From the NCBI RefSeq assembly GCF_030013205.1, contig NZ_CP122648.1: a stretch of DNA of 64,000 nucleotides. One strand, given 5' to 3'. The DNA comes from Escherichia coli (GTDB lineage: Bacteria > Pseudomonadota > Gammaproteobacteria > Enterobacterales > Enterobacteriaceae). Made by a program: the position numbers. Of this stretch, positions 3,001 through 6,000 are shown in pieces. The stretch's first letter is position 1. Each line of letters begins with the position of its first letter.

Positions 3001-6000
3001 TTGATGCTGGAATCAGTTATTCGCAAAACGCCATTAAATTTGCCGTAGACACAATGAAATTGAGCCTGCCTGTTATGGGCGGGGCAGACAGGAATCTTAT
3101 TGGATTCAGTAACGGGGTATTTGATACCCGGACAGGAAATTTTCGGGAGCATAACAAAAATGACTGGTTGTTAAATGCCAGTGAATTACCGTTCAGCCCA
3201 CCAGCAGAGGGGGAAACGCTGGCAACACATGCGCCGAATTTCTGGAAGTGGCTGCGTCGTTCGGTGGCAAATAACGATCGTAAAGCGGATCGCGTACTGG
3301 CGGCATTATTCATGGTACTGGCGAACCGGTACGACTGGCAGTTATTCCTTGAGGTAACGGGGCCGGGCGGAAGCGGTAAAAGTGTGATGGCGGAGATTTG
3401 TACCATGCTGGCGGGTAAGGCCAATACAGTATCGGCGAGCATGAAGGCGCTGGAAGACGCGAGGGAACGAGCGTTAGTGGTGGGATATTCTCTGATTATC
3501 ATGCCTGACATGACCCGCTACGCAGGTGATGGTGCTGGGATTAAGGCCATTACAGGCGGTGACAAGGTGGCAATCGACCCGAAACATAAAGCCCCCTACT
3601 CCACACGTATTCCGGCGGTAGTGCTGGCAGTAAACAATAACGCCATGTCATTCAGTGATCGCAGTGGAGGGATCTCGCGTCGTAGGGTGATATTTAATTT
3701 CTCTGAGGTCGTACCGGAGAACGAACGCGATCCCATGCTGGTGGAAAAAATAGAAGGCGAACTGGCGGTAGTGATTCGCCATTTGCTTACACGATTTGCC
3801 GACCAGGACGAAGCGAAAAGACTACTTTATGAGCAGCAAAAATCAGAAGAAGCACTGTTAATAAAGCGTGAAGGTGATTCGCTGGTGGACTTCTGCGGTT
3901 ATCTGATGTCGTTGGTTAAATGTGAGGGGATGATAGTAGGTAATGCAGAAATAGTGCCATTTAGCCCGAGGCGATATCTGTATCATGCTTATTTGGCTTA
4001 TATGTCTGCGCATGGTCTGGGAAAACCGGTATCACTGACACGCTTTGGTACAGATATGCCAGGGGCAATGGCTGAGTACGGAAAGGAGTACAAGCGGGCT
4101 AAATGCACTAAAGGTCCAGATAAAGGGCGAACGATCACAAATGTTCTGTTAGATAAAGATGCTGATGGATGGTTACCAGCAGCGGCAGGCATTAACGACA
4201 GAACATGATACGAAATTTATAAGTTGAAACTTAAAAGTAGACGGTTGGTAGACAGATACACTTAACCCTCTACCAACCATCTACTAATTAATGTTTTGAA
4301 TTATATAGGTATTTTTAATGTGGTAGAGAGGTGGGCAGTTATTTCTATATTCCTAAACCACGGGGGGTATATAAAAAAACAGATAGTTAAGGGTTCATTT
4401 TTTAAATTTCTCTTTTAACTGTCTACACTGTCTACCATTTAGTAAAAATCATTAATTATCAATGTATTAATGCGGTAGACAGTTAGTAGACAGTTTGCAG
4501 ATTGTTTTTTTGTTATGAGTTAATAACATTAAATAAATCAATCAATTATATCGGTAGACAGTTGGTAGACAGTTGTAACGATGGGGCAAAGCATGACTAA
4601 GCTGACCATTAACAGAAAACCGAAAGGCATTTATGGCACGCCGCAGAAAACGACGCAGGCGGCACAGGAGCAGGATAAAACCACGTCGGCGCATAAAGTG
4701 ATGCCCGGTAACCAGAAAGCGCAGCAGAAGCCCACAGGGGCGACACCGTGGCGGCATATGACCAAGCGCCAGCGCAAAAACCGCAGGCGCATTAACCGCC
4801 TCACTGAGTTGTGGCCTGAATTATTCAGCCGGGAAGCACCGAAGCCGCTTAAGGTGGGGATATTCGACGACCTGATGCAGGATCTCGCCGTCAGGGGGCT
4901 GGCATTCGGTCCAGGGGCATTGCGTGCGACGCTGGCATCTTATGCACAGTGTCCGCGCTATTACCGCGCCTTAATGGCTGGTGGGGTACGCTACGACCTG
5001 AAAGGCCAGCCGTGCGGCGAGGTGACACCACAGGAACAACAGGACGCAGAAACGCGGCTGGTGGCGCTGAATGAGAAGCGCAAACGTCAGCGCCGGGTAG
5101 CAAAGGAGAAAACAGGCGCATGATTCACGACAGCAAAGCGGAAGCACTGGAAGCGCGTGGTCTGTACCGGAGAGCGGCGGCGCGGTGGGCTGAGGTCATC
5201 ATGCTGGCGAATGATGACAAGGCACGGGAACAGGCGGCAAAACGTCGCGCGGAATGTATCCGCAAGGCAGCACGCCCACCAGCACGGCAGGATAATTTCG
5301 GGGAGATGCGCGAAACCATCAGCCGGGCACATGCCGGGATGGGATTACATCAGCCCAATGGTAAGGCATTCAGGAAATACCCTGGATCGAAAAATTGCAG
5401 TCAGTGACGGAGGCCGGGATTTTTCCCGGCTTTTTTGTGCCAGTAAAAAGCCCGCAGCCAGAAGTGTTGCGGGCTTTGTTTTTCAGGTGATTGAAGTCAA
5501 TGGGAAGAACGCGATCATCATGCGTTATTGTTTCATAAATTGCAATGATGTAGATCGTCATTTCAGTTTGTGCAATCATAATCGTTGTTTTGTTCAGGAG
5601 ATATGACTATGAGAAAAGCCAGCGTGAAACCTGTTTTACTCGCTCGTGATCAGATTGAAGCATTACAGCGCATCCAGGACGAGGAACGCCGCAATTCTCC
5701 GCTGGGGATTGCTCCGAGCATTCATGAGGTCGCCCGGCGTTTAATGCAGCGGGCGCTTTATCCCGTAGAACGTCCGGCCTGATGGTCGTGATTTTTTGGT
5801 GAAAAAAGAGAGGTGGTAAAAATGCCAGCAAGCAAAGAAGATTTGCGATTAAAACTGATGGAGGTGGTTAACGCTCTGTCAGAGTCGCAGGGCAGCACTC
5901 CGCAGGAGATTATCGAAATTCTGAATGCGATCCCCGCACAGGATTTCATAAAAGAGGATAACGCTAATCAAAACATCGTCGCGTCAGTCGAAGATGAATC

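Follow-up and report, generated by a model that had tools for sequence, protein, structure and literature searches.

The question raised by this locus is whether two regulator genes on a mobile island of Escherichia coli ETEC4079 act on type III secretion or on the element that carries them. An initial annotation of the 64,000-nucleotide stretch of DNA analysed here, referred to as the window, had assigned positions 4581-5407 to a FinO/ProQ-like and a PerC-like regulator, and had suggested that the pair, next to the ETT2 locus, is horizontally acquired regulatory input into type III secretion or into other chromosomal genes. The two genes form a translationally coupled cassette of a PICI-like phage satellite and most likely serve that satellite, not ETT2, a reading to which we give a probability of about 0.5. 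The features on which it rests are listed in Table 1.

Table 1. Coordinates in the window of the satellite, its replication genes, the two-gene cassette and the flanking repeats.
Feature	Position	Strand	Evidence
PICI-like phage satellite, part within the window	1..11403	+	RefSeq annotation, PHROG, tRNA 3'-end repeat, Rfam
DUF4222 protein, RgdR homologue	2116..2406	+	49% identical to Sakai ECs1581 (RgdR), E 1e-25
Satellite primase/replicase, D5_N-type	2403..4208	+	phrog_864 DNA primase, E 3e-155; RefSeq 'DNA primase family protein'
Replication origin with 11 iterons GGTAGACAGTT, occurring in either orientation around AT-rich spacers	4236..4574	.	Iteron matches, repeat families
FinO-type ProQ/FinO-domain protein, 176 aa	4593..5123	+	Pfam, PDB sequence matches, AlphaFold/Foldseek
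PerC-family small regulator, 95 aa	5120..5407	+	Pfam PerC PF06069
First intrinsic terminator after perC, GCCGGG-loop-CCCGGC then T6	5410..5437	+	Sequence, folding
Second intrinsic terminator, a 12-bp stem between an A-run and a T-run	5447..5487	+	Terminator scan, folding
attR, 18-bp direct repeat of the tRNA-Gly 3' end, TTCCCTTCGCCCGCTCCA	11386..11403	.	Repeat search
Further tRNA-Gly repeat copy, 23 bp, closing the second island	26128-26150		Repeat search

The carriage of both genes on a mobile island was borne out. The island is 14.2 kb in size and is bounded by 18-bp direct repeats of the tRNA-Gly 3' end lying 14,248 bp apart. It starts at tRNA-Gly 2.8 kb upstream of the window, and the integrase, the int-alpA RNA motif (45.5 bits in Rfam) and AlpA are all located in this upstream part. 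PHROG matches in the island comprised the integrase, an AlpA-type excisionase/regulator (phrog_2790 and phrog_66), Ant and the primase. The stop codon of the DUF4222 gene overlaps the start of the primase gene, and of the 32 iteron matches in the window (at most two mismatches) 11 lie within the 340 bp of the origin, the number expected for the whole window being 11. This layout agrees with the PICI origins described in PMC6092414. The island has the integrase next to tRNA-Gly, a specific att site with direct repeats and a size within the range of about 10-15 kb expected of a PICI; by the definition of a PICI taken from PMC6092414, it also has AlpA and a primase/replicase with an iteron origin behind it, on either side of an AT-rich stretch. 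It lacks a full complement of phage genes for structure and lysis: the only phage-type genes are those of a DUF2213 protease-like protein, a 679-aa protein with a transglycosylase domain and a TerS-like HTH protein, and neither capsid, portal, large terminase nor tail genes were found in the island. Phage Kapi1 has been shown to mobilise a related element, EcCIMP1 (PMC11773190). Homologues of PerC carried by E. coli PICIs have already been published (PMC6092414), and together with RgdR they count as standard PICI genes (PMC6092414, PMC11773190).

Domain searches and fold comparison agree on the first of the two proteins. The FinO-like gene could also start at an upstream ATG at 4581, giving a protein of 180 aa (4581-5123); the second ATG at 4593 is the start in most homologues and in RefSeq. 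Residues 67-172 match positions 4-108 of the 109 in the Pfam ProQ/FINO model PF04352 (E 1.2e-23), and sequence matches to solved FinO-domain proteins (5nb9 at 6e-12, 1dvo at 1.7e-10, also 3mw6 and 7rgu) cover ProQ-NTD, FinO, NMB1681 and RocC. The domain was modelled by AlphaFold with a pLDDT of 88-96, and Foldseek matched the model with probability 1.00 to 3mw6, 7rgt/7rgu, 1dvo and 6s10, NMB1681, RocC and FinO being among the matches, with a target-normalised TM of up to 0.84. At the N-terminus some 60 residues make up a disordered, basic arm; the FinO domain comes next, and a basic helix lies at the C-terminus. R115, Y127 and R137, which align with R58, Y70 and R80 of ProQ, are each at least 90% conserved among 38 members of the family, whereas K54 and R62 of ProQ, with moderate effects there, are not conserved. 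As R58, Y70 and R80 are essential for binding of every RNA tested with ProQ (PMC10168233), the RNA-binding pocket is, judged from this alignment, intact.

The FinO-like protein is neither FinO nor ProQ in the strict sense, scoring 64 bits with NCBIfam NF010317 and 58 bits with NF003434, whose cut-offs are 136 and 127 respectively, and its context is that of satellite replication. It resembles FinO of F-like plasmids and FopA of IncI plasmids in its length (about 180 aa), in the basic arm preceding the FinO domain and in being borne by a mobile element, but it is only 25-31% identical to them, its locus lacks a tra or rep context and no FinP-like or Inc-like antisense RNA was found with Rfam. 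With chromosomal ProQ it shares the domain and the three key residues, but it is encoded by a satellite, ends about 10 residues past the domain helix and has neither the linker nor the Tudor-like C-terminal domain. Identity of the FinO-like proteins inside E. coli ranges from 55 to 97%, indicating rapid diversification. Both this protein and its PerC-like partner belong to large families, and RefSeq already names the two genes accordingly; a FinO-like partner gene in satellites of this kind is so far known from annotation.

The second protein matches Pfam PF06069 from end to end (model positions 1-89 of 90, E 2.4e-32), and the assignment to the PerC family held as well. Y16, R17, R18, A19, R22, W23 and C46 are invariant in 40 PerC-family sequences including PerC, PchE and EcCIMP1_025, and this YRRAAxRW motif with the Cys is carried also by PchA. 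Identity is 51% to PchE (over 90 aa), 46% to EcCIMP1_025, 46% to PchA and 44% to PerC. EPEC PerC (pMAR7) and EHEC PchA/B/C belong to the same Pfam family with the same invariant residues, but they are LEE1 activators encoded on a virulence plasmid or on lambdoid prophages, with another context and other partner genes, and PchA has a C-terminus nine residues longer. The ANR model NCBIfam NF033650 gave the PerC-like protein of the window 14.4 bits (E 0.024), where 32 bits is the cut-off. In nine of nine PerC-family proteins this model matched one and the same stretch, the N-terminal 45-50 residues (E 1.6e-7 to 0.046), the highest score, 31.1 bits, being that of EcCIMP1_025, so that from sequence the relation of PerC to ANR looks like remote homology and not membership. 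The three-helix model of the protein has a pLDDT of about 90, and since the fold search returned no PDB match better than E 2.9, no DNA-binding fold can be assigned to it.

The stop codon of the FinO-like gene and the start codon of the PerC-like gene overlap as ATGA, an arrangement kept in 49 of the 51 IMG/VR loci where PerC directly follows the FinO-like gene, and the linkage of the two is still present in a relative with 46% identity. The pair is closed by two intrinsic terminators, the second of which looks bidirectional; the region 5395-5495 folds with -44.6 kcal/mol (z -5.2), and terminators 3' of PerC exist in several unrelated sequence versions. Shortly beyond the second terminator, at 5527-5575, lie conserved TTTCA-N5-TTGCAAT repeats. 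Purifying selection acts on both genes, dN/dS being 0.16-0.30 in the FinO-like and 0.07-0.35 in the PerC-like one. PADLOC gave no match for either protein as a member of a defence system.

Of 5,426 complete E. coli genomes, 327 carry the cassette, as do 80 IMG/VR contigs. Related satellites hold it at tRNA-Thr (proA; thrW), at tRNA-Pro (yejM; proL) and at tRNA-Gly. Its slot is constant, inside the element and after the satellite primase and origin, and in relatives this slot holds varying combinations of SSB, FinO-like protein and PerC-like protein. A recognisable primase lies upstream of the FinO-like gene in 62 of 73 assessable IMG/VR loci and belongs to one of four families (D5_N, DUF927, Sp7-type or TOPRIM), and an SSB gene lies at most 600 nt upstream in 36 of 74. 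PerC is absent from 20 of 79 assessable loci, degraded in loci L004-L007 and frameshifted in EC5. About half of the DUF4222-type satellites are without a FinO-like gene and PerC is often lost, so neither gene is essential to the satellite. The cassette was on a plasmid in none of the 382 places where it occurs in the E. coli set, and among 50,697 phage records only seven distant, weak matches to the FinO-like protein and two weak matches to the PerC-like protein were found. No record carries both genes, and a home of the cassette on true phages or plasmids was rejected. On plasmids the FinO-like protein matched plasmid FinO at about 30% identity, and the PerC-like protein matched pEAF-type plasmids and also one 12-kb circular satellite. 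The cassette is an ordinary, already annotated feature of phage satellites.

Further described systems come close to this arrangement. PchE (ECs1588) is encoded by Sp7/O-island 51 of E. coli O157:H7 Sakai, which equals PICI EcCIEDL933, in the same slot, with primase and origin on one side and the packaging genes on the other, in a satellite that likewise uses a tRNA site and a P4-type integrase and encodes an RgdR-type DUF4222 protein. Sp7 differs in its full capsid/terminase module and in the gene before pchE, which codes for an SSB and not for a FinO-domain protein; that it might be a hidden FinO homologue was thereby rejected. EcCIMP1 (PMC11773190) is likewise a satellite with AlpA, AntA, DUF4222, Icd-like protein and primase, and its transglycosylase-type 'ejection protein' module resembles the 679-aa protein of the window. 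EcCIMP1_025, its PerC/ANR-like member of the PerC family, differs in lying near the far end of its element without a FinO-like neighbour and in scoring about twice as high with the ANR model. Episomal phage satellites of Vibrio carry a FinO-domain gene named 'ProQ/FinO-like regulator' (PMC13230959), but they are plasmid-like (parA, repA) and reside in another host.

For a cassette serving the satellite the following mechanism is proposed. The pair fills a variable slot directly after the replication origin. The FinO-like protein, built like plasmid FinO, would most likely bind terminator-type hairpins with 3' tails in a few RNAs of satellite, helper-phage or host origin, and would stabilise the bound RNAs or aid their pairing. 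FinO proteins of mobile elements act in narrow RNA circuits specific to their element (PMC9977716). The PerC-like protein, with its ANR-like three-helix N-terminal domain and no recognisable DNA-binding fold, most likely alters transcription by way of protein-protein contacts. Effects on virulence, motility and biofilm genes of the host would be a side-effect or an accessory trait whose direction is not predictable from sequence.

FinO-type riboregulation has so far been associated with plasmid conjugation and replication and with competence in Legionella. Should the FinO-like protein have a dedicated RNA partner, this type of regulation would be extended from plasmids to phage satellites, in a small and tractable system of one protein and few RNAs. 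The main value of the PerC-like protein is one of caution, as 'PerC family' on an island is no predictor of type III secretion activation; satellites of commensal and pathogenic E. coli hold many PerC/ANR-like variants, with effects of differing sign on virulence genes.

The strongest competitor, possible but rather unlikely, is that the two genes are accessory ('moron') regulators directed at the host, a cargo which reprograms chromosomal genes, among them those of motility, curli/biofilm and virulence regulons, to the advantage of the host cell and not of the satellite life cycle. Overexpressed PchE, the closest of the characterised relatives and in the same position of its satellite, represses csgD and curli and induces flagella (flhDC, fliC), and its deletion has a small curli phenotype (PMC6265319, PMC7369912); its overexpression effects are a precedent for the initial annotation's weaker suggestion of input into other chromosomal genes. 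Overexpression of EcCIMP1_025 represses LEE1, as seen with LEE1-lux in Citrobacter rodentium (PMC11773190). The regulon of chromosomal ProQ includes many host mRNAs (PMC9977716), and a variable slot that is dispensable in many satellites is as expected for cargo genes. The published effects were, however, mostly obtained by overexpression, commensals and pathogens both keep the cassette, and it holds a single internal position in the replication-to-packaging operon, whereas PICI cargo usually lies at the ends of the element (PMC6092414).

A bolder version of the satellite-serving reading, which we regard as unlikely in this form, is that phage satellites have in the FinO-like protein their first dedicated RNA chaperone, which constitutes with the co-translated PerC-like protein a two-layer switch, of RNA and transcription, that times satellite replication or hijacks helper gene expression through an RNA of the satellite or the helper. 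A candidate RNA would be the antisense-terminator-like hairpin where the RgdR-like/primase operon begins. The same hairpin enters a narrower proposal, in which the FinO-like protein would chaperone a satellite antisense RNA limiting translation of the DUF4222-primase operon and would so control replication; this we consider quite improbable. Both FinO/FinP and FopA, which acts with Inc RNA on repZ of IncI plasmids, provide precedent (PMC9977716), the ProQ/FinO-like gene of the Vibrio satellites has been read as a maintenance function (PMC13230959), and the FinO-like gene lies directly beside the origin and often beside SSB. The conserved hairpin is formed by codons 6-11 of the DUF4222 gene, which is translationally coupled to the primase gene, and its minus strand is terminator-like with a U-tract covering the start codon. 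Against this proposal, no convincing minus-strand promoter was seen, and the FinO-like gene travels with four unrelated primase families. As a target specific to the FinO-like protein the hairpin was rejected, for it shows no association: all 34 satellites that have the FinO-like gene carry it, and so do 35 of the 36 that do not. Its codons also encode a conserved G-x-x-A-S-G peptide, and protein constraint may explain part of its conservation, leaving the hairpin a speculative lead only.

Other sources of an RNA partner were surveyed over the island. Rfam gave no match in the whole window at the gathering threshold, and relaxing the threshold to E<=1 brought up nothing in the island except tRNA-Gly and int-alpA RNA, so no C4/CI, FinP or Inc-like RNA. 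Within the FinO-like gene there are two weak terminator-like hairpins on the minus strand (4801-4785 and 4642-4626), and dS is lower in the N-terminal arm. An antisense RNA embedded in this gene was rejected, since synonymous heterozygosity among 55 unique genes is flat at 0.12-0.24 with no local drop. Taken over Rfam, synonymous variation and the hairpin survey, no RNA partner of the FinO-like protein was found.

Regulatory input into type III secretion, the original proposal for the pair, is very improbable, given that the cassette occurs at other att sites, that ETT2 is degenerate, that the effects of PerC relatives differ and that PerC on PICIs was already published. PerC and PchABC do activate LEE1 (PMC3378721, PMC6265319), and the island also encodes a homologue of RgdR, an activator of LEE1 in EHEC, but this homologue has HGD where RgdR has its activating RGD motif (PMC3378721). 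PchE is reported to be dispensable for expression of ler or espA (PMC6265319, PMC11773190), and the closest characterised relatives of the PerC-like protein repress LEE or fail to activate it (PMC11773190). The protein is about equally distant (44-51%) from LEE activators, a non-activator and a repressor, and its effect on type III secretion is therefore unpredictable. The strain is a porcine ETEC. The position 'next to ETT2' holds only loosely, by the common tRNA-Gly locus: the first ETT2 gene begins at position 28583 of the window, 23 kb from perC, and a second island of 14.7 kb separates the attR of the satellite from ETT2. The cassette lies outside ETT2 and is found also at the distant thrW and proL sites. 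ETT2 of ETEC4079 has frameshifted YscQ-like and EivJ-like genes and insertions of IS2 and IS1. The satellite lies beside ETT2 because both use the same tRNA-Gly site, a matter of att choice by the integrase.

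The window corresponds to positions 959999-1023998 of the chromosome of the porcine isolate E. coli ETEC4079 (NZ_CP122643.1) with 100% identity, and the two regulator ORFs claimed at 4581-5407 in the initial annotation are both present with exact coordinates. The domain searches confirmed both family assignments, as residues 67-172 of the ORF at 4581-5123 (+) matched Pfam ProQ/FINO PF04352 (E 1.2e-23) and the ORF at 5120-5407 (+) matched Pfam PerC PF06069 along its full length (E 2.4e-32). The NCBIfam scores of the FinO-like protein were 64 bits for FinO and 58 bits for ProQ, both far under the curated cut-offs of 136 and 127 bits, respectively. 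In RefSeq the genes are named 'ProQ/FINO family protein' (WP_000164223.1), with the start placed at the second ATG (4593), as homologue alignments also favour, and 'PerC family transcriptional regulator' (WP_000581049.1). The observation of the pair is thus correct and both genes were already annotated. The stop codon of the FinO-like gene overlaps the start codon of the PerC-like gene in an ATGA junction. Both families are large and fast-diversifying and occur in Escherichia, Shigella, Salmonella and Citrobacter. In pairwise comparisons with six or seven diverged relatives, the dN/dS of the FinO-like gene was 0.16-0.30 and that of the PerC-like gene 0.07-0.35, and these low values show that both are maintained by selection. 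The cassette joins a predicted mobile-element RNA binder of FinO type to a PICI-borne PerC homologue, both of known kinds.

The mobile island proposed as the setting of both genes was borne out by tRNA-Gly repeats, an integrase, AlpA, a primase and an iteron origin, and the gene order is given in the table. By its size, att site, AlpA, primase with iteron origin and incomplete complement of virion genes, the satellite fits the published definition of Gram-negative PICIs (PMC6092414), and it most resembles the EcCIMP1 type (PMC11773190). The unannotated Arc-like ORF and the adjacent operator-like GGTAATTAC repeats, which overlap a divergent TTGACA-17-TACTAT promoter, probably form the satellite's repressor/operator switch. 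The product of the DUF4222 gene shares 49% identity with RgdR (Sakai ECs1581) and has HGD where RgdR has its functional RGD (PMC3378721); it adds a third 'T3SS-regulator homologue' to the island, absent from the initial annotation. The promoter at the head of the second operon looks activator-dependent from its sequence: its -10 (CATAAT) is good but its -35 is poor, and upstream of it stand two conserved TTTCA-N5-T(T/G)GCAAT repeats that are retained even in relatives whose sequence has diverged elsewhere. The GGTTGACACTT motif, which occurs three times towards the right end of the satellite, may represent a packaging or operator site.

Features of the satellite and its surroundings (window coordinates unless stated; L001 is a DNA record that includes sequence upstream of the window)
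Feature	Position (strand)	Remarks
tRNA-Gly, tyrosine integrase, AlpA-type regulator	upstream of window	
int-alpA RNA motif, Rfam RF02996	L001 8578-8645	about 1.4 kb before window start, just downstream of integrase; 45.5 bits (gathering 35.8)
AntA/B antirepressor		first in satellite order inside window
Arc-like/YlcI-type repressor, 57 aa	1238-1411 (-)	phrog_228 E 1e-6; YlcI/YnfO family match
GGTAATTAC repeats and divergent promoter	1405-1433	beside Arc-like ORF
Icd-like gene		between Arc-like repressor and DUF4222 gene
DUF4222 gene	2116-2406 (+)	stop overlaps primase start codon
Hairpin CTGGC-N6-GCCAG	2132-2147	codons 6-11 of DUF4222 gene
Primase	2403-4208	
Eleven GGTAGACAGTT iterons	4236-4574	between primase and cassette
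FinO-like gene	4593 (4581)-5123 (+)	
PerC-like gene	5120-5407 (+)	
Two tandem terminators		directly after the FinO-like/PerC-like pair
Repeats and promoter	5527-5582	head of second operon
Second operon	after terminators	DUF2213 protease-like protein, 679-aa transglycosylase-domain protein, TerS-like HTH protein
GGTTGACACTT, three copies	10478-10488 (+), 10507-10517 (-), 10699-10709 (-)	past TerS-like HTH gene
tRNA-Gly 3' end repeat, 18 bp	11386-11403	gives element size of 14,248 bp
Second, tandem island	11404-26150	about 14.7 kb; major capsid protein, baseplate protein, IS3 element, small recombinase; integrase (-) at right end
tRNA-Gly 3' end repeat	26128-26150	closes second island
ETT2 cluster	28583 to about 55600	eivF-like gene first; sctC at 29329

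Of 5,426 complete E. coli genomes, 327 contained the 1-kb cassette, in up to five places per genome and always in the chromosome (382/382). Related islands with the cassette occupy tRNA-Thr by proA, tRNA-Pro by yejM and tRNA-Gly. Among 80 IMG/VR contigs encoding a relative of the FinO-like protein, PerC followed directly in 51, with the 4-nt overlap in 49 of these, and was otherwise located upstream (4), degraded nearby (4) or absent (20). A primase belonging to one of four families preceded the FinO-like gene in 62 of 73 assessable loci and none was recognised there in the other 11, and an SSB gene was present within 600 nt upstream in 36 of 74, usually at a distance of 40 nt. The corresponding slot of Sakai Sp7/OI-51 is occupied by SSB followed by PchE, without the FinO-like gene, which was also missing from about half (36/70) of the DUF4222-type satellites with enough downstream sequence. 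In a related record, L014 (11006-11823 versus window 4593-5407), PerC is 99% identical and the adjacent FinO-like protein only 73%, so the two genes recombine independently, and a breakpoint at the gene junction is implied. Either gene was hardly ever present in true phage genomes and the two together never. The picture is that of an accessory slot with variable content immediately downstream of the satellite origin, holding nucleic-acid-binding or regulatory genes, of which the FinO-like/PerC-like cassette is the commonest filling. L003 (NZ_CP148430.1), a circular 'plasmid' of 12,152 bp from a chicken E. coli, is a related satellite, apparently assembled in excised or episomal form, with an integrase, AntA/B, DUF4222, an Icd-like gene, a TOPRIM-DUF927 primase and a PerC homologue of 58% identity.

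The FinO-like protein matched every solved FinO-domain protein in sequence, namely ProQ-NTD (5nb9, E 6e-12), FinO (1dvo, E 1.7e-10), NMB1681 and RocC, and its AlphaFold model, built with 38 homologues as input (domain pLDDT 88-96), matched the same structures with probability 1.00 and target-normalised TM up to 0.84. Residues R58, Y70 and R80 of ProQ, essential for binding of all RNAs tested (PMC10168233), align with R115, Y127 and R137, each at least 90% conserved in the family. Like FinO and unlike ProQ, the protein begins with an arm of roughly 60 residues that is basic, disordered and conserved in sequence, and it also differs from ProQ in lacking the linker and the Tudor-like C-terminal domain. 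Sequence identity with plasmid FinO is low, at 25-31%.

On mobile elements, a protein of the FinO type typically works with a single antisense RNA encoded in cis, as in FinO-FinP and FopA-Inc (PMC9977716). Rfam scans of the window and island found no antisense RNA partner, and no window of suppressed synonymous change was found along the FinO-like coding region. The hairpin in the DUF4222 gene has invariant synonymous positions across diverged satellites and, read on the minus strand, is terminator-like with a U-tract covering the start codon, a FinP-like geometry. It was rejected as a FinO-like-specific target, being equally frequent in satellites with (34/34) and without (35/36) the FinO-like gene and having no evident minus-strand promoter. 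At the 3' end of the cassette mRNA are strong terminator hairpins, of which several versions with unrelated sequences occur; such hairpins are a generic FinO-domain ligand type and not specific evidence. Most likely, and with moderate confidence, the FinO-like protein would bind terminator-type hairpins in a small group of RNAs from the satellite or its helper; a part in a replication-control circuit is an alternative for this protein, and host-directed regulation one for the cassette. Descriptions of PerC homologues and RgdR as genes of E. coli PICIs date back to 2018 (PMC6092414), and one such PerC homologue was tested in 2025 (PMC11773190). The literature search retrieved no paper that discusses FinO/ProQ-domain genes of PICI-like satellites from E. 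coli, the nearest precedent being a short reference to a 'ProQ/FinO-like regulator' carried by episomal Vibrio satellites (PMC13230959). The significance of the cassette hangs mainly on the possible satellite-specific riboregulation, if true.

The PerC-like protein has all the family-invariant residues (Y16-R17-R18-A19, R22-W23 and C46). It is 51% identical to PchE, 46% to PchA, 46% to EcCIMP1_025 and 44% to EPEC PerC (pMAR7). The initial description of the family as LEE activators fits PerC and PchA, but the effects reported across the family differ: expression of ler and espA requires the group 1 Pch (PchA/B/C) and not PchD or PchE (PMC6265319), PchE when overexpressed acts as a repressor of csgD and curli and an inducer of flagella (PMC6265319, PMC7369912), and overexpressed EcCIMP1_025 represses LEE1, silencing LEE1-lux (PMC11773190). 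With similar distances to relatives of differing effect, neither the sign nor the existence of a T3SS effect is predictable from sequence. In the AlphaFold model, residues 5-51 form an N-terminal unit of three helices (pLDDT ~90), with a fourth helix of lower confidence, and in a PDB fold search no structure, and notably no DNA-binding fold, matched better than E 2.9. The NCBIfam ANR model matched the same N-terminal 45-50 residues in 9/9 PerC-family proteins tested, with E from 1.6e-7 (EcCIMP1_025, 31.1 bits) to 0.046, the protein of the window scoring 14.4 bits (cut-off 32). ANR proteins have three helices and a conserved Cys (PMC4038620) and act by binding other regulators (summarised in PMC11773190), which together with these matches suggests that the PerC-like protein may work via protein-protein contacts.

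The proposed adjacency to ETT2 stands insofar as the same tRNA-Gly locus is shared, but ETT2 lies 23 kb from perC, past the second island. ETT2 is described as located at the glyU tRNA locus, in agreement with the last tRNA-repeat copy directly before the ETT2-side genes. The neighbourhood of cassette and ETT2 therefore reflects one shared tRNA att site and not function, a better explanation than regulatory input into ETT2 or T3SS, which is unsupported. The ETT2 cluster is degenerate, with frameshifted YscQ/HrcQ-like and SpaN/EivJ-like genes, IS2 between the two apparatus operons and IS1 beside yqeI.
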